This document shows, one piece after another, positions 49,433-63,254 of a stretch of DNA of 64,000 nt; positions within the stretch are counted from its first letter, which is position 1; the number at the start of each line of letters is the position of its first letter. The stretch covers positions 4,671-68,670 of the forward strand of contig CAYFMD010000001.1 of the NCBI GenBank assembly GCA_964344105.1, read 5' to 3'. The notes beneath the pieces are model-generated. The model did not search any database and was not told the DNA's origin. It worked only from the letters and a program-made list of their open reading frames with translations. The translations under genes were made by a program, and so were the position numbers. Origin of the DNA: Candidatus Woesearchaeota archaeon (GTDB lineage: Archaea > Nanobdellota > Nanobdellia > Pacearchaeales > GW2011-AR1).

Positions 49433-49446
49433 GTTGTATATCTCTG

Positions 49447-49478
49447 ATATATAACAGTCTGAAATCTTTGATTTCAGA
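49447..49478 (-). promoter_or_regulatory. fusA promoter: a TATA-like TTATATAT about 20 nt upstream of the ATG, plus a perfect 9-bp inverted repeat TCTGAAATC-TTT-GATTTCAGA just upstream of it
   Basis: I saw this in the sequence. The IR position, just upstream of BRE/TATA, is typical for archaeal regulator binding sites. Confidence 0.45.
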
Positions 49479-49655
49479 ATCTCAAAAACCTACCAATCAA
49501 ACCCGAAGGGTTTCGCTGGTTTTTGAGGTCTGTTATTATAGTTTATTCATGCAAAATTCGCTTTTTAAATCTTCCTAATGATAAAAGCAAACATTTAAAT
49601 ACTACTATTTGTCACTATTATTAAATAATAACACTACAAGGAGGTTATAAAAAGA

Positions 49656-49946
49656 ATGAAAAGAAAGGAAAGAATAAGTAGAGAGCATGCAGCTATCCTA
49701 GATAGTGCTGAAGGTTCAGCTTTAGTTAGAGCTATTGCAGATAGAGATTCAACAGAATTTACTATAAATGTAACAGAATATGCTCCAAGAATGGCTGAGA
49801 ATAGAGCTGTTGGACAGTTTGCTACAGCTTTCAACGCTGCTTACACTGGTCAAGCATATATAGACGCTCCAACAACTAGCGCACTATTATCTGCAGGTCA
49901 CAGTTCACCATCTTACAGAAGAGTTAGAAAAGCTTCTGTAGCTTAA
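49656..49946 (+). CDS. Hypothetical small protein preceded by a strong SD (AGGAGGT)
   Basis: GGAGGT lies 7-8 nt upstream of the ATG. The composition is GC-shifted and A/T/S-rich. Confidence 0.45.
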   Translation: MKRKERISREHAAILDSAEGSALVRAIADRDSTEFTINVTEYAPRMAENRAVGQFATAFNAAYTGQAYIDAPTTSALLSAGHSSPSYRRVRKASVA

Positions 49947-50019
49947 ATTTTTATTTTTTTATTTTCTTTAACTTCTTTGAAGTTTAAGAGGCAGAAATTT
50001 TTAATTTCTGTAATATTTT

Positions 50020-50196
50020 TAATTGAATATTTTTTCAACCCAAGTGAGAACTCTCCCAATCATGCTATCTTCACTTATATTGCCTAAAAGGATATTACTA
50101 CCTTCTCCACCAAATCCAAAAACCAACCCATAAATTATAGACAAAACCACTAAAACTATCAATACAATTAAAGTCCAATACAACCACTTTTTCATA
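50020..50196 (-). CDS. Candidate small membrane protein (~58 aa, MKKWLYWTLIVLIVLVVLSIIYGLVFGFGGEG...)
   Basis: I translated this from the minus strand by hand. It falls below the track's length cut-off, and the coordinates are approximate to within 2 nt. Confidence 0.3.
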
Positions 50197-50252
50197 ATTC
50201 TAACAATAAAAAAATCTATATAAAATTATCCACCAATTTTTATATAGTTCTC

Positions 50253-50666
50253 TTGCTTCAAACAATTATGCTAGTAGACAAAAAAGATGTACATAGGGGC
50301 CTAACAGAATTAATAACAAGTTTATTACAGTGGACTGATCCTGATGGCCATCACATATTTGAGATAAATGGATTCGATCCAACAGTAAAAAGGTATGGGA
50401 TATTCAAAGCTGATCCTAGTAAGCCAGAAACAATGGGATGCAGAACATACACCGTAACTTACCTATATCATACAGAAGATGGAGCAAATAGATATGTTGG
50501 AGATAGGGACACTTTCAATACACATTGTGTAATAGCAGATCTTTACAGAGGAATGACTGAACAGAATTGTGCTATCAATTGGAGGTTAGCTTTGAAAGGC
50601 AGACCTGGAGCTGAAGCAGGATATGACTTATTAGAAACCGCACTAACTGTAAAAGCAAAACCCTAA
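50253..50666 (+). CDS. Hypothetical protein
   Basis: It is an ORF with a probable start at MLVDKKD. Confidence 0.4.
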   Translation: MLQTIMLVDKKDVHRGLTELITSLLQWTDPDGHHIFEINGFDPTVKRYGIFKADPSKPETMGCRTYTVTYLYHTEDGANRYVGDRDTFNTHCVIADLYRGMTEQNCAINWRLALKGRPGAEAGYDLLETALTVKAKP

Positions 50667-50706
50667 CACTAAATTTATATATCTAAAATATCTAGTAAAA
50701 TAAAAG

Positions 50707-51384
50707 ATGGTGAAAGATTTATTTTCAAACAGAAACCTATTAATAATTTTCATAATAGTTGTAGCAGCAATAATAATCTTCACAGCTGGAACTTCAACTG
50801 ATGAAGAAGGCCTAGCACAATCAGGAGTTGACTTTGCAGCACTATTGGGTTTTGTTGGAGATCCTGGAACTCCTAGTCTAGAAGATTTAGCCGGAATTTG
50901 TCAAACTGATGATGATTGTAAGAGTCCAAACAAACCTACTTGCAGCGCTTCAGGATTATGTGAGAAAGGTTGCCAAGATGATGCCCAATGTAATAAATTC
51001 TTTGATATTGGTAAGAGCATTTGTGACCCAGATGGATCATGTCAAGTATGTAAGAACGATGATGGTAACGATGTAAGTATTACTCCAGACACTGGATGCC
51101 CTGCAACGGCCCCAGTTTGTAGCTCAGAACATCAATCATTCAGACAAAAGAGAAGTACAGGTAAGGAGAGCTTATGTGTAGAATGCAATTCAGAAGGATT
51201 CATTGCTTCAGACACTCTAGACAAATCTCCTACAAATAGCCATTGCATAAATAACCCTCTATCTGATGGAGATATATGCCACTTCTACAGATGTGTAGAG
51301 TGTGTATTAAACGGAGACTGCGGAGATGGCTTCCAATACATTTGCAATCAAAATAGATGTGAAAGAAATCCTGCAGTTGTTTAA
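50707..51384 (+). CDS. Cys-rich N-terminally membrane-anchored secreted protein (paralogue family member 3)
   Basis: It has SNRNLLIIFIIVVAAIIIFTAG, then DEEGLAQSGVDFAALLGFVGDPG, then a Cys-rich domain. Confidence 0.55.
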   Translation: MVKDLFSNRNLLIIFIIVVAAIIIFTAGTSTDEEGLAQSGVDFAALLGFVGDPGTPSLEDLAGICQTDDDCKSPNKPTCSASGLCEKGCQDDAQCNKFFDIGKSICDPDGSCQVCKNDDGNDVSITPDTGCPATAPVCSSEHQSFRQKRSTGKESLCVECNSEGFIASDTLDKSPTNSHCINNPLSDGDICHFYRCVECVLNGDCGDGFQYICNQNRCERNPAVV

Positions 51385-51396
51385 AGATTATTAAAA

Positions 51397-52107
51397 TTAT
51401 CTAGCTGAATCAGCTTGCTTCTCACTATCTCTCTTCTTAGACATAGCAGAACTATCCATATCCTTATTGTAAGCCTTCATTATCTCAGCAGACAATGCTT
51501 GCTCAATACTAGTCTTTTTATTAAAACTCTTATCATAAGAACCTTGAACCATATGTCTCAAAGTCATTGTAACTCTTCTCAATGGACTGATATCAACAGC
51601 TTGAGGATATCTCGCACCACCATACTCAATTACTGTAACTCCATCCATCGGAGCTGAATTCTCCAAAGCAGTTACCAAAACTTGAACAGGATTCATCTTC
51701 ATCTTATCCTCAATAATCTTCAAAGTCTCAACAACTATCTTCATATTCTGACTATACTTACCTGTCTTCCATCCAGTTTGAATCTTGTGCTTCTTTCCTC
51801 TATGTCCAGGAACTGCAACTAGGTTAGCAAAAATCTCCAAAAGATTAATCTTAGACTTTCCAAACTTCTCTCTAACTCTACCATGACTCTTAACCATCAA
51901 CTTAGGCTCTAGATTAAAATATCTCTTCATACCAGGGTCAACAATCTTAATATCACTAACATCCCAAAGACCAAACAATTTAAAATTATTTTTATCTTTT
52001 TCAATTTCTGCCATATGGTCAATTACTTCGTCTTCCATGTGACCTGCATCATCTTCAGATGATGTACCTGCTGTCCCTTCTTCCATTTGTACTTCTTGTT
52101 CTGCCAT
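51397..52107 (-). CDS. rps7: Ribosomal protein uS7 with an acidic N-terminal extension
   Basis: It has FGLWD...VDPG(M)KRY and NPVQVLVTALENSAPMDGVTVIEYGGARYPQAVDISPLRRV segments, and ends in SAR. Confidence 0.85.
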   Translation of the reverse strand: MAEQEVQMEEGTAGTSSEDDAGHMEDEVIDHMAEIEKDKNNFKLFGLWDVSDIKIVDPGMKRYFNLEPKLMVKSHGRVREKFGKSKINLLEIFANLVAVPGHRGKKHKIQTGWKTGKYSQNMKIVVETLKIIEDKMKMNPVQVLVTALENSAPMDGVTVIEYGGARYPQAVDISPLRRVTMTLRHMVQGSYDKSFNKKTSIEQALSAEIMKAYNKDMDSSAMSKKRDSEKQADSAR

Positions 52108-52108
52108 C

Positions 52109-52462
52109 TTAAAATCCTAAAATACTATCTAGATGATCCTGACTAAGATCTATGCTCTCAGCACCTGCAGCTATCTTAAAAGTTTCATTTAATTGATTTA
52201 GATCACGAATAACATTTTCCCTAACATTAGGGTCTAGATTTGGATCTCTTACTGCACTACCAATTTGAGATAGTTTTCCCAGAATATTTGCAGTATTTCT
52301 AGCAGATTCTTCAGCAACATAACTAGCCATATCTCCACCAATATAATCAGAACTTTCCGCATCAGCCAAATTAAATGCATGAGGTCTCAAAACCATTTTA
52401 TTTCCATCAGAATCTCTAATTAAATCATAATTATTCATTTTATTCAATAGCCTCCCTAACAA
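52109..52462 (-). CDS. Hypothetical protein F, one of the genes inserted between rps12 and rps7
   Basis: It is an ORF with GC-shifted composition. It overlaps gene E by 23 nt. Confidence 0.4.
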   Translation of the reverse strand: MLGRLLNKMNNYDLIRDSDGNKMVLRPHAFNLADAESSDYIGGDMASYVAEESARNTANILGKLSQIGSAVRDPNLDPNVRENVIRDLNQLNETFKIAAGAESIDLSQDHLDSILGF

Positions 52463-52820
52463 TTTCTTCTAAGATATTACGAGCATCAGCAATCCTATTG
52501 CCTTCTTCACCATTAACTTCATATCCTATCTTTGCTTTTTCTGATCCATATGTAATACTAACACCAACTCCTTCAACTAAAAATGCTCCAACATACCCTT
52601 GGGCGCCATTAGTTTCCATGATTACCTTAATAGAATCATTACTATGATTAATGGCAGCACATCTAATAGGGTTTAAAATATGTCTTGCAAATGCTCCTCT
52701 AACATCTGAAAATTCATCCGCAGTACTATTTCCAGATTTATAAGCAGAAACAACACCTCCATAGTCAAAATCCGAAAAGGATAAATTTCCATATATTTCA
52801 TTACTTTGTTCTGTTTCCAT
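52440..52820 (-). CDS. Hypothetical protein E, inserted between rps12 and rps7. It has weak Roadblock/LC7-like features.
   Basis: The GAFLVEGVGVSITYG pattern supports the call, but the similarity is weak. Confidence 0.35.
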   Translation of the reverse strand: METEQSNEIYGNLSFSDFDYGGVVSAYKSGNSTADEFSDVRGAFARHILNPIRCAAINHSNDSIKVIMETNGAQGYVGAFLVEGVGVSITYGSEKAKIGYEVNGEEGNRIADARNILEEIVREAIE

Positions 52821-52821
52821 T

Positions 52822-53265
52822 TTAATTATCCCTCTCTGAATGATACTCGGTTAAATATCTTCCAATTTTATCTATAGCCTCAAATCTTTTTAATTCATCT
52901 CTATTAGTAATATCAATAGAACATGTATTCATCGGTCTATGATCCAAAAGAACATGGCAATCATCCAATTGGTATCCTACATATCTTCTCTCAGGATTTA
53001 CTAAATCTGGAAGATGTAATGTTCGAATAAGCCCGAAAAATTCTGCATATAGTTTAGAGCTACCTCTAAAAAGAGGTTCCATTATTAAATTATGGAAAGC
53101 ATTACTTGATGTTTCATCTATTAAACAACTGGTATTTCCAGAAGAACTATGGTTACTGGTGTATGAACGTAACAAACCCTCGCCAAGAGCATCAATAAAA
53201 GCAAATCTAGCGTCAATGCTACCAACATGGGGGTCTCTTGTCAAAATTACACTTCCACTAGACAT
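52822..53265 (-). CDS. Hypothetical protein D, inserted between rps12 and rps7
   Basis: The track ORF (to 53322) overlaps rps12, so I set the start at the internal Met MSSGSVIL at 53265, 2 nt from the rps12 stop. Confidence 0.4.
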   Translation of the reverse strand: MSSGSVILTRDPHVGSIDARFAFIDALGEGLLRSYTSNHSSSGNTSCLIDETSSNAFHNLIMEPLFRGSSKLYAEFFGLIRTLHLPDLVNPERRYVGYQLDDCHVLLDHRPMNTCSIDITNRDELKRFEAIDKIGRYLTEYHSERDN

Positions 53266-53266
53266 C

Positions 53267-53689
53267 CTATCTCCTTCCCTTCTCGATCTTACCAGTCCAC
53301 AATCTAGACAACGGCTGATCATTTACTTTTGTAACTTTCCATCTAACACCAGGAATATCTCCCTTAGATCTTCCCTGCTTACCACCAATTCTCTCAATCA
53401 TAACTTCATCGTGCTCATCAATAAACTTCTGAGCCAAATTTCCAGGAATAAACGCTGTAACAACCTTAGAATTCTTAATCAACTGAACCTTGCAACACTT
53501 TCTCATAGCAGAGTTTGGCTGCTTCGCTTCCTTTTGAACCTTCTCCGTAACAATTCCCTTAGCCTGGTTCTTACCACCTAAAGGATCCGATTTCTTAAAC
53601 AAATCAAGAGTCTTCACTTTATACTTACGATCTCTCCATCGAAATTTCCTTCGATTCTTCAATAGTTTTGTTGCATTTCTTAGTCCCAT
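53267..53689 (-). CDS. rps12: Ribosomal protein uS12
   Basis: It has [22 protein letters not shown] and ...[10 protein letters not shown] segments, and the length is 140 aa. Confidence 0.85.
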
Positions 53690-53794
53690 TTGTACTAATT
53701 AATTTACGAGAAACAAGTCTGTACAAGACCACCTTAACTCGTAAATATTATCTAAAGCCACTCAAATATGTTTTGAGTAACAATAACCTATCAT

Positions 53795-53828
53795 CAAAAA
53801 AACAATGGTCTCAAAGACCTTGTTTTTA
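53795..53828 (-). terminator. A short hairpin (GGTCT-CAA-AGACC) flanked by a T7 run on the minus strand and a T5 run on the plus strand. It is a putative terminator between the inserted gene block and rps12.
   Basis: I saw this in the sequence about 100 nt downstream of the 53915 stop. Confidence 0.4.
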
Positions 53829-53914
53829 GGATCATCAGTAATTCCCACACACATAGTGTGTGGTGTGTTAAATTACTGAGATAAAAAGGGTTTAAAAAGG
53901 TTCGCATGGTAAAA

Positions 53915-54121
53915 TTATTTAGCCAGCTTTTCATCAATACTCTTAGAAATAGCTCTAACAATGGATGAACTCATCCCAGTAAATATTGAGATCTCATGAA
54001 CAGAATAAACATATCCATCTAATCCTTCAAGCATACCATAAACTGTTCTCTCATTACGATGTAATCTAGATAATACATCATGCTCCTCACCTGGTAGGTC
54101 CCTCTCATACATAGAAAGCAA
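53915..54121 (-). CDS. Small HTH-like protein C, inserted between nusA and rps12
   Basis: It has an HTH-like segment VHEISIFTGMSSSIVRAISKSIDE. Confidence 0.4.
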   Translation of the reverse strand: MLSMYERDLPGEEHDVLSRLHRNERTVYGMLEGLDGYVYSVHEISIFTGMSSSIVRAISKSIDEKLAK

Positions 54122-54151
54122 TAAACGAAAGAATATAAAAATTTTAGTATA

Positions 54152-54382
54152 TTACAACTCACCCAACTTTCTCATTGCACTATTTCGTGCAGCAATAACT
54201 TCTATTTCAGGTTCTTTAAGTATCCTACGTGCCACAATTCCAGTATCATAGGCATTACCATCTCCCGCACCAGTTGTCAGCATATAAACGTTAAGTTCAA
54301 ATTGTGTTAATCCAGCTCCTATAAATCTATCCCTATCCCTGTCTCTTCCATAATTATTATTTTGACTTCCCATAACAAACAA
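54152..54382 (-). CDS. Hypothetical small protein B, inserted between nusA and rps12
   Basis: It is an ORF with an RDRDRDR tract and GC-shifted composition. Confidence 0.35.
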   Translation of the reverse strand: MFVMGSQNNNYGRDRDRDRFIGAGLTQFELNVYMLTTGAGDGNAYDTGIVARRILKEPEIEVIAARNSAMRKLGEL

Positions 54383-54415
54383 GTTCTCAAGAAGAATATA
54401 AAAATCTTTACAAAA

Positions 54416-55009
54416 CTAGTTTCCACGAGGCTCCAATTCGATAGGGTAGAGACTTAATGCACTTAACCGTTCAAGCACCTGGGCTCTATCCTTATGCGCT
54501 TTAGCCATAATAACTCTACAAGATCTATCATAATCTGGCAGGCTGTTCTTAATGATAAGATCCATATTTGTGTCTCTTAAGCGAGTCTTATTACGCCTAG
54601 AAATCAGATATCTATCCTGTTCATTTCTATTTCCTATATCTACAACAAAAGCCGTAAATCCAGGATCAAAAATACTAGAAAATTCATCATAACCATGTGG
54701 TGCCATTTTGCTATTTGTGTTTGATGGCCACATCCCATAAAAAACGTATTCTTGTGGAGCATAACCCTCAAAATCATCCACAACTTGAGAAACATCAGTA
54801 CTAACAAAATAAGACATGGCGTTACTAGCACCAGGTTTAATTCTATGATCAAATCTTACCAATACTTCAGATCCAATTAAATCACTAGCACCATTTACTA
54901 AAACTTCTCCTCCATTTAATCTAGCCGCTGAACATCTGTCATTTATGTACCTCTCAACAAAGATTTTCTCCAACCTTCCACTTAACGCCTCTTGTGTAAC
55001 ATCTCTCAT
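54416..55009 (-). CDS. Hypothetical protein A (197 aa), inserted between nusA and rps12
   Basis: It is an ORF with GC-shifted composition. Confidence 0.4.
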   Translation of the reverse strand: MRDVTQEALSGRLEKIFVERYINDRCSAARLNGGEVLVNGASDLIGSEVLVRFDHRIKPGASNAMSYFVSTDVSQVVDDFEGYAPQEYVFYGMWPSNTNSKMAPHGYDEFSSIFDPGFTAFVVDIGNRNEQDRYLISRRNKTRLRDTNMDLIIKNSLPDYDRSCRVIMAKAHKDRAQVLERLSALSLYPIELEPRGN

Positions 55010-55043
55010 CGGAACTACAGAAATAACTAATATAAAAATCTTA

Positions 55044-55460
55044 TTACTTTATCCTAACTCTCTTCACACCAAAATACTGCCCAAGAATATTCTCCATCTC
55101 GTTCAATCTAACTTTCCCTCTTCCAATCAAAGCAGCTTTACTTTGCATTCCTGCAGTTATAATAGCCTCATCACCTTTCAACTCAATTCCACTAAACTTA
55201 ATTGGCTTCGTAACCATGCTAACAAATCCTTCAATATCTTCCTTACCATTTGGAATAGCAACAATCTTAATCCTCTTGCCAATAACCTTGCTCAACTTTT
55301 CCAAATTCTGATTATCCTTCCCAATAGCTTTCATAATGAAATGTCTAGGGATAGCAAAAACTATCGCATTATTATACTCAAAACAATGAGTACATCTAAT
55401 CTTTGTAACCTTGTTAAAAAGATTAGCATACCTTATGAACTTCATATCTAAAACTTTCAT
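55044..55460 (-). CDS. nusA: Archaeal NusA homologue (two KH domains)
   Basis: It is 138 aa with a KH-like GKDNQNLEKLSKVIGKRIKIV segment and sits in the conserved position. Confidence 0.8.
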   Translation of the reverse strand: MKVLDMKFIRYANLFNKVTKIRCTHCFEYNNAIVFAIPRHFIMKAIGKDNQNLEKLSKVIGKRIKIVAIPNGKEDIEGFVSMVTKPIKFSGIELKGDEAIITAGMQSKAALIGRGKVRLNEMENILGQYFGVKRVRIK

Positions 55461-55548: not shown

Positions 55549-56130
55549 TTATGAACCAGAATTTAAATTACAATTCTCAGTATAAAAGTCGCACTTAAAT
55601 TGTTCTAGCTCATTAAGACTTCCACCAGCAGAATCTAAAGTACATTGAATACTATTTTCACAATACCTGCCATTCAAATCATTGGCACTACCAAAAACCC
55701 TATTATCATTATAATTATCAAAATCTGCTTCAAATCCTATCACTCCCTCAAAAACTGGAACCACTGCAATCTTAGAAAGATCCACAGTATTAACATCATC
55801 GTGAGTGAAACCAAACATGCCGACATCTAAATCTCCTAAACCGTCTGGATCTCTATCAACTATATGTGTCTCCCCTTCCTCATTATAAAAAACAAACTTC
55901 AACACATCTATATGTCTAGCTCCTTTCTCAACTCTAAGCAAAACAAAACTCGCATCTGCATCAAGATCAGCCTGAAAAATATTTATCCCAGTGCTATATC
56001 TGTCAACACTAACCTCATCTACAGCACCTCTAATAAACAAATTCACAACATTATACAAAATAATTATGGTTGCCAATATTATCAATATAATTAATACAAC
56101 AACAATAATTCTCGCTTGCCCCTTTTTCAT
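55549..56130 (-). CDS. Type IV pilin-like protein (class III signal peptide), occupying the usual L30e slot
   Basis: The N-terminus is MKKG|QARIIVVVLIILIILATIIILYNVV. Confidence 0.5.
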   Translation of the reverse strand: MKKGQARIIVVVLIILIILATIIILYNVVNLFIRGAVDEVSVDRYSTGINIFQADLDADASFVLLRVEKGARHIDVLKFVFYNEEGETHIVDRDPDGLGDLDVGMFGFTHDDVNTVDLSKIAVVPVFEGVIGFEADFDNYNDNRVFGSANDLNGRYCENSIQCTLDSAGGSLNELEQFKCDFYTENCNLNSGS

Positions 56131-56216: not shown

Positions 56217-59200
56217 TTATTCAGCACTAGGCTCTTCACTAGCCTTTTCAGAAGTATCTTTTGTATCCTTAGTCAACTTAGCAACACTCTTATCAGCCTT
56301 AGGCTTACTATCTGTCAAAGGACCAGCAACTTCTACCATCAATCCAGGTAATCCAGTACCTACTGGAACAGGCTGATTCAAGATAATATTCTCAATAACC
56401 GAGTTCAACTCATCCTTATTATCCTTCAAAGTAGCATTAACAAACTGCTTAATTGGTGTCTCGAAACTAGCTCTAGCCAAAATAGATGACTTCTGAGAGA
56501 TAATACCCATTCTAGTAATACCCTTAACAACACCTTCATTAGTCATAGCATCACTTATCAACTTAGAGTGTCTACCATCAATATCAAGTCCCTGAGAATT
56601 CAATACCTTACCAATTTCTCTAATAATAACTGCTCTTGCAACCTCAATACCGAAGATATCTGCAACTTCATGGATATCATTACTTACAGTATTAGATGGA
56701 TCAACTTCCTTGAACTTAATTATCTCTTCCAAGTTTGTTCCAGCAGTCAAAATAACATAACCAGTATCTCTCCTAACAACCAAAATTTGGCTAATCCCCT
56801 TAATACCTGAAATCTGAGTATCCTTAACCTTCTCCTTCAACTTATAGATCTCCTTAAAGTCAAGATCCTTTCCATCAAAGACAATCATACTACCACTAAC
56901 CTTAGCAGTTCCCAACTTTCCAGTATCATTCAATCTCTTAACAATAGTATCCAAAGTTGAATGAACCCTCTTAACAGCCTCATTATCTACCGTAGCCTCA
57001 ATCTTCTTATCTGAGAAATTAATCTTAATCTCCTTAATTATATCTTTCAACTTAACTTCTTTAATCTTCTCAGCCAAAACCTTTGCATTCTTCTCATCAT
57101 CATACTGCTTATTCAAATGAATCTCCATTTCTGGTGTTGAAGGGGTTCTTCTAGCGTCAAAAATCTCTATCAATCTTGGAAGACCACTCGTAACCTGCAT
57201 TTCAGCAACTCCTGCGAAGTGGAATACATTCAATGCCATCTGAGTTGATGGCTCTCCAAATGATTGAGCAGTAACAATTCCAATAGCCTCACCAGCACTA
57301 ATATCTTTATCCTCATGCAATCTAGCTACATCCTTTCCATCTTCTCCATACAAGAACTGAATAATTCTTCCACTACCATCTCTAACTGTCTTATCATACT
57401 CAACTCTAATGTCTTGTAGAGCATTAGCCAATCTTCTATATAGATAACCTGACCTAGGTGTTCTCAAAGCGGTATCCATTAACGCGTCTCTTCCAGTTAT
57501 AGCTCCGAAGAAGAACTCATATGGTTTCAATCCACCTAAGAAACTACTATAGATAAATCCTTTAGCCTTTGGTGTAAGATCGTGCTCCTTAAAGAAACTC
57601 AATGTTCTATTATTAAATCCAATTCCAATTCTCTTAGCCCACAAAGCCTGCTGTCCAACGCAACATGCCATCTGTGTAACATTCAATACACTTCCACCAG
57701 ATCCTGATGTCATCATAACACTAACTGGATTTGATTTGTAAATTTCTCTACCAACAATCTTTCCAATCTTTGTTCTAATACCATTCAAAGTCTGCAAAAT
57801 CTTAATCTCTCTAGTCTCTTCATCAGTCTTACCTGGAATAATCTCCAAATTACCCTCGTGGAAATCCTGAATAATCTTCTCAGTTTCCTTCTCAGCATCC
57901 ATAACAACTTGATCAGTTTCTTTCTTAACCTTCTCACTAACATTCAAGTCATCAACTGAAATTGTAAAACCATGATTAGTCAAATAATTTGTACCTAGTG
58001 CAGAAGAAGTCTCTAGAACTTTAATAGCTTCATCTCTACCGAAATCCTTGTCTACAAACTTCAACATGTCTCCAGCTTCTACACCGAAAACCTTCTCATC
58101 AACAATACCCTCACTAATCTTTCCACCCTTAACATTAAATGCACTTCCATCCTTTGCCTTAGCACTATAATCTACCTTTGGAATCAATGTACTAATAACT
58201 TCATTACCCTTAGGATCCTTACCAAACTCCCCTTCAATTCCTGACTGGAACAACAACTGATTAGCTTCAGCCTTATTCAATCCGCCTTGACTCAACAAAT
58301 AATTTCCAGTAACTGCATCAACAATATTTCCTAACAAGTTACTATTATCCTTACAGCTCATCAAATTCTTATTAACATCCATCAAGATCTTAGCTTCTGC
58401 TCTAGCTTCCTCAGTCTGAGGAACGTGGATATTCATCTCGTCACCATCGAAGTCCGCATTATATGGATTTACAGTAGCAGGATGAACTCTAAATGTCTTG
58501 TAAGGAAGAACCTTAACAAAGTGAGCCATTAAACTAGCCTTATGCAAAGATGGGTGTCTATTAAACAATACAACATCTCCTTCAATCAACTGTCTCTCAA
58601 CAACATAACCAATCTCCAACTCTTCCAAAATCTCTTCCTTCAAATCCTGAGTAATTCTCTTCCTTCTACCATCAGGTCTAATTACATAATTAGCAGTTGG
58701 ATAATGTTCATTCAAAATAATCTTCTTCAACTTATCAATATTCATACTGTTAACTTTCTCATTAACTGTCAATAACTCAGCAATCTCATATGGAACACCA
58801 ACTTCATTCAAATGCAAGCTTGGATCTGGAGAAACAACAGTTCTCGACGAGAAATTAACTCTCTTTCCAGCAAGATTGTGTCTAATTCTTCCTTCCTTAC
58901 CCTTTATTCTTTCAGTAATAGTCTTCAATGGCTGTCCTGATCTGTGTCTTGCAGGAGGAATCTTTGTAATTGAATTATCAAAGAATGTAGTAATATGATA
59001 CTGCATCAAATCCCAAAGATCTTCAATAATAACTTCAGGAGCTCCAGCATTCAAGTTCTCCCATAATCTCTGATTAGATCTTATAATATCTGAAAGTTTG
59101 TGGGTCAAATCATCTTCTGATCTCTCACCACTTTCTAGAGTAATACTTGGTCTAACTGTTACAGGTGGAACCAACAATAAAGTAAGAACTGACCATTCAG

Positions 59201-59759
59201 GTCTAAAAATCTCGGGATTCATTCCAGCCAATCTAACTTCTTCATCTGGAATTCTAGCTAATCTATCCCTAATCTCTCCAGGGAACAATCTTTTCTTTCC
59301 AACCTTGAATGTAGTAGGTTTATGCAACTTAACTTTCTCTTGCTCAGCACTACAATGAGGACATTTCTTAGAGTCCTTAGCTCTCTTCAATCTATCCTTG
59401 ATAGTTTTATACTTAGCCATATCCTTCTCTTTAACCATTAACTTGCTACATTCACTACAATAACATCTCAAGAACAACTCAGCTACTGGGATATACTTAA
59501 TATGGAAAACAGGTCTAGCCAACTCAATACTTCCTGGGTGACCTAAACATTCCTTCAATCTACCACCACAAGTTCTACATCTTACACCAGGATCAATAGC
59601 TCCCAACCTTAAATCCATCAAACCACCATCAACTGGATAACCATCTACGTCATATAGTTCTGGAGTAATAATCTTCGCCTTACTCATCTTCTTAATCTCA
59701 TCAGGACTAATCAAAGTAAACTGCAAACTCTCAACTTTTTTCTTTACTGGTCTTTTCAT
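56217..59759 (-). CDS. rpoA: RNA polymerase largest subunit RpoA as a single continuous ORF (A' + A'' fused), 1180 aa
   Basis: It has N-terminal zinc-binding Cys clusters, the NADFDGDEMN active site, a bridge helix and the trigger-loop GEAIGIVTAQSFGEPSTQMALNVFHFAG, all in one frame. Confidence 0.9.
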   Translation of the reverse strand: MKRPVKKKVESLQFTLISPDEIKKMSKAKIITPELYDVDGYPVDGGLMDLRLGAIDPGVRCRTCGGRLKECLGHPGSIELARPVFHIKYIPVAELFLRCYCSECSKLMVKEKDMAKYKTIKDRLKRAKDSKKCPHCSAEQEKVKLHKPTTFKVGKKRLFPGEIRDRLARIPDEEVRLAGMNPEIFRPEWSVLTLLLVPPVTVRPSITLESGERSEDDLTHKLSDIIRSNQRLWENLNAGAPEVIIEDLWDLMQYHITTFFDNSITKIPPARHRSGQPLKTITERIKGKEGRIRHNLAGKRVNFSSRTVVSPDPSLHLNEVGVPYEIAELLTVNEKVNSMNIDKLKKIILNEHYPTANYVIRPDGRRKRITQDLKEEILEELEIGYVVERQLIEGDVVLFNRHPSLHKASLMAHFVKVLPYKTFRVHPATVNPYNADFDGDEMNIHVPQTEEARAEAKILMDVNKNLMSCKDNSNLLGNIVDAVTGNYLLSQGGLNKAEANQLLFQSGIEGEFGKDPKGNEVISTLIPKVDYSAKAKDGSAFNVKGGKISEGIVDEKVFGVEAGDMLKFVDKDFGRDEAIKVLETSSALGTNYLTNHGFTISVDDLNVSEKVKKETDQVVMDAEKETEKIIQDFHEGNLEIIPGKTDEETREIKILQTLNGIRTKIGKIVGREIYKSNPVSVMMTSGSGGSVLNVTQMACCVGQQALWAKRIGIGFNNRTLSFFKEHDLTPKAKGFIYSSFLGGLKPYEFFFGAITGRDALMDTALRTPRSGYLYRRLANALQDIRVEYDKTVRDGSGRIIQFLYGEDGKDVARLHEDKDISAGEAIGIVTAQSFGEPSTQMALNVFHFAGVAEMQVTSGLPRLIEIFDARRTPSTPEMEIHLNKQYDDEKNAKVLAEKIKEVKLKDIIKEIKINFSDKKIEATVDNEAVKRVHSTLDTIVKRLNDTGKLGTAKVSGSMIVFDGKDLDFKEIYKLKEKVKDTQISGIKGISQILVVRRDTGYVILTAGTNLEEIIKFKEVDPSNTVSNDIHEVADIFGIEVARAVIIREIGKVLNSQGLDIDGRHSKLISDAMTNEGVVKGITRMGIISQKSSILARASFETPIKQFVNATLKDNKDELNSVIENIILNQPVPVGTGLPGLMVEVAGPLTDSKPKADKSVAKLTKDTKDTSEKASEEPSAE

Positions 59760-62700: not shown

Positions 62701-63039
62701 ATGACTATCCAATTGACCTGCCTGCTTAATTGTTATCTCAACATGAACTGGAGCAGAATAAGTCAACCCTCTAATTCTCGCCTCACTTGGCATAATCAAA
62801 TGGCTACTTCCATCCGCCTCAAAAATCTCAGGCTTACCAACCTTAATCTTACCTAACTTGATCTCGATGTCCTCATCATCACTAGTCATAGTCTCATTCA
62901 ACTCATCAACAATCTCTTGCATTCTGTGATTGATGAAATTATTAAAACTAACAATATTTGACTCTATCAAACTATGATCTTCCAAATACTTCTTAACCAA
63001 CAAGTGTTCTTCCTTCTGCTGACTTTGCTCTAGTTTCAT
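59761..63039 (-). CDS. rpoB: RNA polymerase subunit B (unsplit), 1092 aa
   Basis: It has the conserved Rpb2 blocks and the C-terminal Zn ribbon CSKCG...CPVCN. Confidence 0.9.
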   Translation of the reverse strand: MKLEQSQQKEEHLLVKKYLEDHSLIESNIVSFNNFINHRMQEIVDELNETMTSDDEDIEIKLGKIKVGKPEIFEADGSSHLIMPSEARIRGLTYSAPVHVEITIKQAGQLDSHEVEIGRMPIIVKSDVCNLNNLDKDQLVEEYIDPKDPGGYFIINGNERVIVMAEDLAENQPFIESPKGEIMLRLFSKRGSYRIPISITDTKEGIVEVSFSRFKNIPIIVILKALGLTKESDIAKYVGKENDSLIVNLYEYANITNEEEAMMAIAEQTSLQGTKKEILDRIKQRLDSYFLPHIGLKKEHRIEKAISLCKFLKQFFVAKENPDNLTDKDHYANKRVRMSGDLLGDLFRINMNILLRDVQHSLQKIQKRKKFYSIKTIAKSTLFTHRIESAIATGNWIGERSGVTQNMDKTNYLAIISQLQRVSSMLPGEQENFLARTLHPTHYGRFCPIETPEGTEIGLRKNLAILSKISTRPSLDDEKLIKVLDDYNMHKDIEGEGSDVFLNGRFVGHVDDVQKFVADLRETRRKGDLPIELSIKDNKELGNVLLSTEIGRVMRPVIVADGGKSSLTEEHEKLLREGSLKWDDLVKNGVIEYLDAAEEENALVSLEKDGLTEEHSHLEIDKIDLLGVVTSLVPYSNYDQSSRLNRGSKTQKQALGLYAANFLNRIDTDVNILHYPQEPIVKSFVYDTLNVHPAGQNVIVAVMTHEGYNMEDALILNKGSLDRGLGRSTYYRPYTSVELNYAGGLKDEITIPEKDVSGYRTEESYRFLEDDGIVYPEAKLESGEVMIGKTSPPKFLSEVREISIKTKKEASSVVRQEEKALIDAVFVTEDGQGNKVVRVRTRDLRVPELGDKFATSHGQKGVIGAVIPENDVPFTSKGVRPDMIFNPHSIPSRMTVGYLIELMAGKLACLGGKVLDGTGFSGQNIRDLEKQMEELGFRADGKETLYNGITGKMMNVKIYVGNMYYLKLKYMVSNKMHARASGKVTLLTRQPIEGRAKGGALRLGEMEQQALVAHGASLLLKERYDSDKVVLPICSKCGAVAIEDTIRGKVTCPVCNSQDIEPVEISYAFKLLVDEIQSLHIKTKFNLKNKYE

Positions 63040-63254
63040 TATACACTTACAACCCTATAATAGATAATAGTCTTGCCAGATTCAGGATCTTTTCTCTCAA
63101 TCTTAACAACGTCTCCAACTTTGAAGCTGTCATCTAATGCAGGGTCAATAACTTTAATTTTAGGTAATTGTGACGTAGAAATATTCAACTCCTTCACGAG
63201 CTTCTCAGCCTCTTCTTCTTTAAGTTTCGTGTGTTGCGGTTGTAGAGCATGCAT
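63039..63254 (-). CDS. rpoH: RNA polymerase subunit H (Rpb5-like)
   Basis: It is 71 aa with LPKIKVIDPA...GDVVKIER...YYRVV. Its stop overlaps the rpoB start. Confidence 0.8.
   Translation of the reverse strand: MHALQPQHTKLKEEEAEKLVKELNISTSQLPKIKVIDPALDDSFKVGDVVKIERKDPESGKTIIYYRVVSV

Follow-up and report, generated by a model that had tools for sequence, protein, structure and literature searches.

Why does an archaeal genome carry six small, uncharacterized genes at the nusA-rps12 and rps12-rps7 junctions, where the gene order ranks with the best conserved in prokaryotes? The question is raised by a 64,000-nucleotide (nt) stretch of contig CAYFMD010000001.1 (assembly GCA_964344105.1, Candidatus Woesearchaeota archaeon), hereafter the window, in which three open reading frames (ORFs) lie between nusA and rps12 and three more between rps12 and rps7. 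An earlier note on this DNA took the six for a horizontally acquired cassette of foreign composition, possibly a regulatory or defence-like module. We consider it likely that they are native, taxonomically restricted accessory genes, which occupy two variable slots in the RNA-polymerase/str gene cluster of a marine DPANN archaeon of the Woesearchaeota/Pacearchaeota type. At this locus, genes specific to the lineage, a sigma-4-like helix-turn-helix (HTH) gene among them, thus lie within a conserved operon.

Six small genes between nusA, rps12 and rps7

Read along the minus strand, the operon in the window runs rpoH, rpoB, an unsplit rpoA, a membrane-anchored ORF of 193 amino acids (aa), nusA, three ORFs (o197, o76 and o68; the upstream slot), rps12, three ORFs (o147, o126 and o109; the downstream slot), rps7, an interval of ~2 kb with four ORFs, and EF2 (Table 1). 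The ORF positions and the TIGR01952, PF00164 and PF00177 matches of the flanking genes bear out the placement of all six ORFs on the operon strand between nusA, rps12 and rps7. Both rps12 and rps7 score above the Pfam cut-offs. The nusA match reaches 58 bits, below the curated cut-off of 74 bits, though it is full-length at E = 1e-15, and nusA is 65–88% identical to its counterparts in relatives. The genes for NusA, uS12 and uS7 stand on a single strand in the order of the archaeal str/L30e operon.

The contig is identical to contigs from marine metagenomes, and its closest named relatives are metagenome-assembled genomes labelled Nanoarchaeota, Woesearchaeota or Pacearchaeota. Independent gene calls on the identical metagenome contigs, taken together with the sequence, place the likely starts of o76, o68 and o109 at ATG codons at 54373 (73 aa), 54112 (65 aa) and 52438 (109 aa). 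With these starts the apparent overlaps vanish, so the six genes are tightly packed, as had been noted, but do not overlap. They were also described as uncharacterized, and indeed none, searched singly, has a significant match in Pfam, NCBIfam, PHROGs or PADLOC.

Composition and coding character

We compared the composition of the six ORFs with that of their neighbours and of the window as a whole. Their GC content is 0.33–0.37 (0.36 for the window), and under a codon log-odds model trained on 15 long genes of the window they score 0.28–0.62 bits per codon in frame (o126, 0.525), as against 0.39–0.64 for nusA, rps12 and rps7. Out of frame, the scores are negative in all six ORFs, and the spacer between o68 and rps12, which served as a control, is negative in every frame. 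Positive in-frame and negative out-of-frame scores indicate that the ORFs are coding and are written in the codon dialect of the host. The six ORFs are thus both coding and compositionally native.

The case for a foreign origin had rested in part on G/C-ending codon usage. GC content at third codon positions (GC3) is in fact 0.14–0.26 in the six ORFs, below the flanking core genes (0.30–0.38) and at or below the window median (0.257), so that the deviation runs opposite to the claim and the codon usage, checked against the ribosomal genes of the window, is native-like. An unusual amino acid composition had been noted as well, and here the excess of Arg over Lys relative to the flanking genes is real: R/(R+K) is 0.60–0.85 in the six ORFs and 0.27–0.35 in nusA, rps12 and rps7. 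Foreignness does not follow, because GC content and codon usage are native and the same bias (R/(R+K) of at least 0.60) is found in 20 other ORFs of the window, among them two that encode proteins of 1374 and 1522 aa. It is the mark of a gene class in this genome and not of this locus. The gap ORFs of relatives show the same trend to low GC3 and higher Arg as the six in the window.

By composition, the genes of the window as a whole form two classes. The first is rich in Lys and has a GC3 of 0.30–0.40, and those of its members that are identified belong to the core informational genes. The second, rich in Arg, has a GC3 of 0.15–0.26 and higher GC at second codon positions, and takes in 26 of the 70 window ORFs.

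Variable slots across related genomes

We gathered 95 loci, made up of the identical contigs, contigs with the sole o197 homologue, eight GTDB genomes found via nusA and 80 metagenome contigs found via rps12, and clustered the ORFs in their gaps into families by phmmer and hidden Markov models (HMMs). The core genes are 65–96% identical across these loci and the spacers vary widely. The nusA-rps12 gap ranges from 39 to 2539 nt and contains an ORF of at least 45 aa in 15 of 41 loci. The rps12-rps7 gap ranges from ~0 to 1159 nt, the window having the longest, and holds one to four operon-strand ORFs of at least 40 aa in 50 of 71 non-redundant loci; in the other 21 the slot is without an ORF. Where the downstream slot is filled, its first ORF begins between -4 and +3 nt from the rps12 stop codon in 47 of 56 loci.

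The slot families are mutually unrelated, and each keeps to its place. In a six-frame search of 611 kb of related loci, every match of every family fell in that family's own slot and on the operon strand, and the profiles of family D (described below), the HTH family and the o197 family include invariant residues. Tandem duplication is seen twice, with two family D genes in L055 and two HTH genes in the window. The earlier note had proposed a comparison of synteny with related genomes. For five of the six genes, homologues occur in the corresponding place in related genomes, and the composition of the genes is native, which makes these five a conserved lineage-specific feature and not an insertion. 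The clade-level pattern, in which unrelated families are faithful to a slot, patchy even among close relatives, duplicated and reordered, is the more interesting result.

The order of families within a slot is inverted between some genomes, A-D against D-A (L059 against L010 and L062) and c15-c5 against c5-c15 (L086 against L091), and the spacers between the reordered genes are only a few nt long. In some relatives the gap between rpoB and rpoA likewise holds small ORFs on the operon strand (L010:559-1195, L011:1546-1866 and L014:4338-4577); the variable-slot pattern extends to this junction.

The upstream slot encodes o197 and two HTH proteins

Homologues of o197 lie at the same position, right after nusA, in L004 (69% identity) and L020 (48%), which brings the total to three species; a search of 5.8 billion proteins returned one match only. 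The ratio of nonsynonymous to synonymous substitution rates (dN/dS) is 0.14–0.34, compared with 0.03–0.09 for nusA and rps12, and indicates that o197 is under purifying selection. In its AlphaFold2 (AF2) model, which was built on an alignment of two sequences and has a mean predicted local distance difference test (pLDDT) score of 42.5, the N-terminal ~55 residues form a small beta-barrel (pLDDT ~60 there). The best Foldseek matches of this low-confidence model are S1/TRAM/OB folds, none of them significant (E of at least 0.047), and no TRAM/OB-fold sequence match was found in Pfam or when the family profile was compared with PDB sequences. On this weak evidence, the N-terminal ~55 aa may be an OB/TRAM-like, possibly RNA-binding, barrel.

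The other two genes of the slot, o76 and o68, belong to a seven-member family of HTH proteins of ~70 aa, the remaining members of which lie between nusA and rps12 in L008, L016, L017, L018 and L034. The earlier note had recognized a small HTH protein at 53915–54121; there are in fact two, o68 and o76, with a sigma-4 match at family level. An HMM of the family built without the window copies finds o76 at E = 1.2e-10 and o68 at E = 2.8e-10, and the two are diverged tandem paralogues. Several relatives have just one copy of the HTH gene at this position, and the o68 homologue in L008 is at the matching spot.

Compared with the PDB, the family profile matches region 4 of SigA/RpoD at E = 1.3e-6. 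Some 50 sigma entries outrank any other fold, with a LuxR-type regulator and the archaeal Tfx far lower in the ranking. The alignment to SigA/RpoD region 4.2 runs from end to end with the pattern L..L..rE..V..L..GlgDG..ys..EIa......V..ie..A..KL. Pfam Sigma70_r4 matches two of the seven members (E = 4.4e-6), and o68 has a weak PHROG sigma-factor match; membership of region 4 (PF04545) holds at the level of the family only. The proteins are ruled out as sigma factors by their length (65–79 aa) and by an alignment that covers region 4 and includes no region 2. Their sequences indicate single sigma-4/LuxR-like HTH domains, not sigma factors. A regulatory role, which had been suggested for the six genes together, is plausible for these two: from its homology, the HTH protein is most likely a small regulator of transcription that binds DNA.

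The downstream slot encodes acidic proteins

The three proteins of the downstream slot are acidic, with isoelectric points (pI) of 4.4–5.6 as against 10.7 for uS12. The C-terminal ~42 aa of o147 are part of family D, which has ten members among the gap ORFs, all of them in the rps12-rps7 slot. An HMM of this family built without o147 retrieves o147 as its sole match among 641 ORF fragments of the window (E = 4.3e-5), and a six-frame scan revealed a further partial copy in L050. L017 (85 aa) and L020 (87 aa) each have a homologue of o109 immediately behind rps12, giving three species with the window; there is also a 33-aa remnant in L016 and a shared N-terminus in L011. The dN/dS of o109 is 0.42–0.77.

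For o126, two formal matches (E = 4e-23 and 2e-15) were rejected as sums of 12–19 repeats, each worth 0–9 bits, in repeat proteins. Compared with family D by hhalign, o126 aligns collinearly at a probability of 17%, which is not significant. The AF2 model of o147 (pLDDT 36.8), built on an alignment of four sequences, is unusable for fold comparison, and nothing meaningful was found when the profiles of family D and the o197 family were compared with PDB sequences. A Roadblock/LC7-like pattern had been read in one of the six proteins, and we rejected this candidate as well. Roadblock/LC7 (PF03259) gave no Pfam match for the six ORFs (E ≤ 1) or for the ten family D members (E ≤ 5), and hhalign of family D with a human DYNLRB1 sequence returned a probability of 0.3%.

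A further acidic family, family A, is absent from the window and occurs in 15 related loci, only between rps12 and rps7. Its proteins of 50–75 aa are marked by the motif P[ED]DF[DN]P at the N-terminus and by a basic, LNLRRKYPK-like tail at the C-terminus (examples in Table 1).

Expression signals of the two slots

The two slots differ in their expression signals. The exact 11-mer ATTTTTATATT, a TATA-like box, occurs three times in the window, each time before one of the upstream trio. It resembles the AAAGNTTTTTAAA boxes found before the homologous genes and before rps12 in relatives, and in L004 and L020 the homologues of o197 have a box similar to it in front of them. The distance from box to ATG is 19–21 nt, a spacing that fits archaeal TATA boxes driving leaderless mRNAs, from which we infer leaderless mRNAs here. 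The upstream trio would then be three units with promoters of their own and not passengers of the operon transcript.

A 22-nt element, AACCTTTTTAAACCCTTTTTAT, conserved in relatives (Table 1), is the predicted promoter element of rps12; in L008 and L018 it lies ~21–28 nt before the rps12 ATG. In the window it is followed by a species-specific insertion of 85 nt that contains two hairpins and a run of seven T residues and is absent from the six relatives in the alignment. A scan for terminator-like sequences, a criterion of sequence only, picked out a stem-loop at 53807–53819 with the T run at 53796–53802; the stem is extended in the minimum-free-energy fold. The 225-nt spacer between o68 and rps12 as a whole (53690–53914) is strongly structured (z = -5.1). 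No Rfam match was found in the 49.4–56.3 kb region, insertion included, and no further copy of the insertion in the window or the 95 loci. The hairpin and T run had been interpreted as the terminator of the upstream trio (53795–53828). Both are present, but because they lie inside the insertion, downstream of the rps12 promoter element, they are not simply the trio's own. The predicted hairpins may act as a terminator for o68, as an attenuator for rps12 or as a short RNA.

In the downstream slot, genes follow one another almost without spacers: the rps12 stop codon is separated from the ATG of o147 by a single G, the o147 and o126 stop codons are each followed by an A and the next ATG, and the o109 stop codon abuts the rps7 ATG. 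A purine-rich Shine-Dalgarno (SD)-like motif precedes each of the junctions of the downstream trio, and the 3' end of rps12 carries the SD-like run GGAAGGAGA. This chain of stop and start codons at 1–3 nt, together with the SD-like motifs, indicates that the downstream trio probably shares its transcript with rps12 and rps7 and that its translation is probably coupled to theirs. The six genes had been pictured as hitch-hiking on operon transcription. This fits the downstream trio, which would ride on the expression of rps12 and rps7, and does not fit the upstream trio with its own TATA-like boxes.

We propose the following arrangement. The upstream slot would comprise three separate transcription units behind ATTTTTATATT boxes, yielding leaderless mRNAs. 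Their products would be o197 and two diverged tandem sigma-4-like HTH paralogues, the latter acting as small DNA-binding regulators. The downstream slot would supply three acidic proteins that, being chained to rps12 and rps7, would be made together with two basic ribosomal proteins.

Origin and role of the slot genes

Mobility, viral and defence-related signatures were sought directly. PADLOC-DB gave 0 matches at E ≤ 1 for the six ORFs and four neighbours, which runs counter to a defence-like module, and scans of IMG/VR for viral relatives of the slot proteins were negative. The window contains no tRNA, neither trio is flanked by a pair of repeats, and no recombinase-like ORF lies in the 51.3–56.3 kb region. 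The six ORFs show none of the attributes of a genomic island, namely atypical composition, absence from the same position in relatives and mobility signatures; the one exception is o126, for which no same-slot homologue was found.

That the six genes form a horizontally acquired cassette, possibly a defence or regulatory module, is in our view very unlikely. It would explain why the canonical archaeal cluster does not contain them (PMC10833476), why slot content differs even among close relatives, why their amino acid composition is unlike that of the flanking ribosomal genes and why o126 is an ORFan. However, GC content and codon usage are native, GC3 is shifted in the wrong direction, five of the six ORFs have homologues in the same slot, the promoter boxes are of the type found in the clade, and neither PADLOC, PHROG or IMG/VR relatives nor a tRNA, integrase or flanking repeat is found. 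Nor do the six behave as one unit, as they comprise two groups of different expression logic, and in relatives their families turn up independently of one another. Even harder to credit is that the genes were brought in by a small mobile element (a miniature inverted-repeat transposable element, or an integrated plasmid or virus) of which this region is a remnant. The unique hairpin-rich insertion of 85 nt between o68 and rps12 and the cassette-like swaps in family order are what one might expect of such an element. Against this, the insertion has no second copy, terminal repeats, recombinases and viral matches are lacking, and the 1–3-nt spacers of the downstream trio leave no space for recombination sites. 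It is just as improbable that the set consists, in part or entirely, of spurious ORFs, that is, of non-coding spacers open by chance. The absence of a significant Pfam, NCBIfam or PHROG match for each window protein, the lack of a homologue of o126, the dN/dS of up to 0.77 for o109 and the low confidence of the AF2 models would all be accounted for. Codon log-odds that are positive in frame, negative out of frame and negative in intergenic sequence are not what chance spacers would give, and the same is true of purifying selection on o197, of invariant family residues and of a precise stop/start geometry with SD-like motifs.

A further proposal concerns role as much as origin: the acidic trio, and likewise families A and D of relatives, would serve uS12, uS7 or the small subunit as dedicated chaperones or accessory subunits, and the sigma-4-like HTH protein would be a factor associated with RNA polymerase (RNAP) or with promoters. 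The strict positional fidelity of every family over the 611 kb of related loci speaks for it, as do the coupling to the end of rps12 that 47 of 56 loci preserve, the pairing of an acidic trio with uS12 of pI 10.7, and an HTH domain that most resembles the RNAP-binding sigma region 4 and is encoded directly downstream of rpoH-rpoB-rpoA-nusA. However, slot content is highly variable and the rps12-rps7 slot is empty in 21 of 71 relatives, which argues against an essential role of any of the proteins in the ribosome; the families are mutually unrelated; and positional fidelity could merely reflect where new genes are tolerated and expressed. We regard dedicated partnership as possible but doubtful.

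Several points weigh against reading the six as native accessory genes of narrow taxonomic range. In L008, the nearest GTDB relative (nusA 82% identical), o197 and the entire downstream trio are missing; this implies rapid turnover, and genes may also have passed between related Woesearchaeota. An exhaustive phmmer search of 1.84 billion representative proteins found no credible homologue of o126, to which the same-position test is thus inapplicable, and o147 matches family D over its ~42 C-terminal residues only. Neither window HTH copy, o76 or o68, has a Pfam match individually. Both AF2 models, of o147 and o197, are of low confidence and yield no function at the level of fold. The ORF caller takes the first start after the rps12 stop codon, which biases coupling distances toward short values, and the promoters, leaderless starts and coupling are all predictions read from sequence. 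Even so, we judge native accessory genes in variable slots to be the likely explanation.

More tentatively, the nusA-rps12 and rps12-rps7 junctions of DPANN archaea of the Woesearchaeota/Pacearchaeota type might be dedicated expression slots, at which small, unrelated, fast-evolving genes are gained, lost, duplicated and reordered while still being wired to the rps12 stop codon and an SD-like motif. At least some of family A, family D, o109 and the sigma-4-like HTH family would then be hitherto unrecognized ribosome- or RNAP-associated proteins of reduced symbionts, including a bacterial-type sigma region 4 module re-used beside archaeal RNAP genes. We put this forward as a speculative extension that is rather unlikely as a whole.

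Throughout an entire DPANN clade, the rpo-nusA-S12-S7 cluster accommodates and retains small lineage-specific genes, each family keeping to its own position and the coupling to rps12 being conserved. The slots thereby offer a defined place in which to seek clade-specific accessory proteins of the ribosome and of transcription in reduced genomes, and a natural system for studying gene birth or capture at highly expressed loci; the sigma-70-region-4-like family between nusA and rps12 is a concrete candidate regulator. For annotators, it follows that slot ORFs should be neither dismissed as contaminants nor read as signs of horizontal transfer.

Other junctions of the cluster

The rpoA gene (56217–59759, minus strand) is one ORF of 1180 aa with Rpb1 domains 1–5, and it aligns continuously in L008, L010, L011 and L014. 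No L30e gene was seen between rpoA and nusA in the window. The usual place of L30e is taken by the acidic 193-aa ORF (55549–56130, minus strand), which has a pilin-like hydrophobic N-terminus and has relatives in the rpoA-nusA or nusA-rps12 gaps of L012, L014, L015 and L058; an ORF in L050 with a hydrophobic N-terminus resembles it, as judged by eye. At the other end of the cluster, uS7 carries an acidic N-terminal extension of ~40 aa that varies in length among relatives (198 to 236 aa in total). The interval between rps7 and EF2 (49433–51396) is widened to ~2 kb and holds four ORFs, three of them on the opposite strand; among its contents is a Cys-rich protein of 225 aa with an N-terminal hydrophobic segment (50707–51384). 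Across six GTDB relatives the interval measures ~0.5 to 2.1 kb.

Table 1. Features of the window and examples of family A in related loci
Feature	Coordinates	Strand	Description	Evidence or context
rpoH	63039-63254	minus
nusA	55044..55460	minus	archaeal, KH-domain, 138 aa	TIGR01952 nusA_arch, E 1.1e-15, full length; upstream border of upstream slot
TATA-like box ATTTTTATATT	55029..55039	minus		19 nt upstream of o197 ATG
o197	54416..55009	minus	197 aa	upstream slot
TATA-like box ATTTTTATATT	54395..54405	minus		21 nt upstream of o76 ATG
o76	54152..54373	minus	73 aa, sigma-70-region-4-like HTH, paralogue 1	upstream slot
TATA-like box ATTTTTATATT	54132..54142	minus		19 nt upstream of o68 ATG
o68	53915..54112	minus	65 aa, sigma-70-region-4-like HTH, paralogue 2	upstream slot
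rps12 promoter element AACCTTTTTAAACCCTTTTTAT	53881..53902	minus	22 nt, conserved, predicted	22/22 identical in L004, 19/19 in L008 and L037
85-nt insertion	53796..53880	minus	species-specific; two hairpins and T7 run	absent from six relatives in alignment
rps12	53267..53689	minus	uS12	PF00164, E 6.8e-39
o147	52822..53265	minus	147 aa, acidic	downstream slot; ATG 1 nt past rps12 stop
o126	52440..52820	minus	126 aa, acidic (pI 4.6), ORFan	downstream slot; ATG 1 nt past o147 stop
o109	52109..52438	minus	109 aa, acidic (pI 4.4)	downstream slot; ATG after o126 stop and GGGAGG motif; stop abuts rps7 ATG
rps7	51397..52107	minus	uS7	PF00177, E 5e-30, residues 113-236 matched; downstream border of downstream slot
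Family A examples	L010:10900-11067; L022:6423-6602; L054:2723-2926; L059:591-740

Relation to known systems

The HTH family resembles sigma-70 region 4 (PF04545) in its end-to-end alignment and in having the size of a single HTH domain. Unlike sigma factors, the slot proteins are without regions 1–3, and the residues of the recognition helix have diverged. Here, moreover, the module is found in an archaeon, whose RNAP works with TBP and TFB; its genes keep to the nusA-rps12 gap and are present twice in the window. Archaeal proteins annotated with a sigma-70 region 4 or LuxR-Tfx-type HTH are already known (PMC5413776). For o197, the likeness to TRAM/S1/OB-fold barrels (for example the archaeal TRAM proteins 1yvc and 1yez) is confined to the N-terminal barrel of ~55 residues in a low-confidence model; o197 differs in that the match is not significant and in having ~140 further residues without an assigned fold.

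The canonical archaeal cluster, rpoH-rpoB-rpoA1-rpoA2-L30e-nusA-S12-S7-fusA, has S12 and S7 adjacent, DPANN archaea included (PMC10833476). The window agrees with it in core genes, order and strand. It departs from it in the extra genes at the rpoA-nusA, nusA-rps12, rps12-rps7 and rps7-EF2 junctions, in the lack of L30e between rpoA and nusA, in an rpoA that is unsplit where the canonical cluster has rpoA1 and rpoA2, and in junctions that vary across the clade. We found no description in the literature of variable slots in this gene cluster. The slot genes are like archaeal orphan genes (PMC9258230, PMC1824705) in being short, fast-evolving, unannotated and restricted to a narrow clade, with one strict ORFan among them. 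They differ from such orphans in being confined to defined junctions of a highly conserved cluster, in being wired into its expression signals and in the shuffled order of their families.

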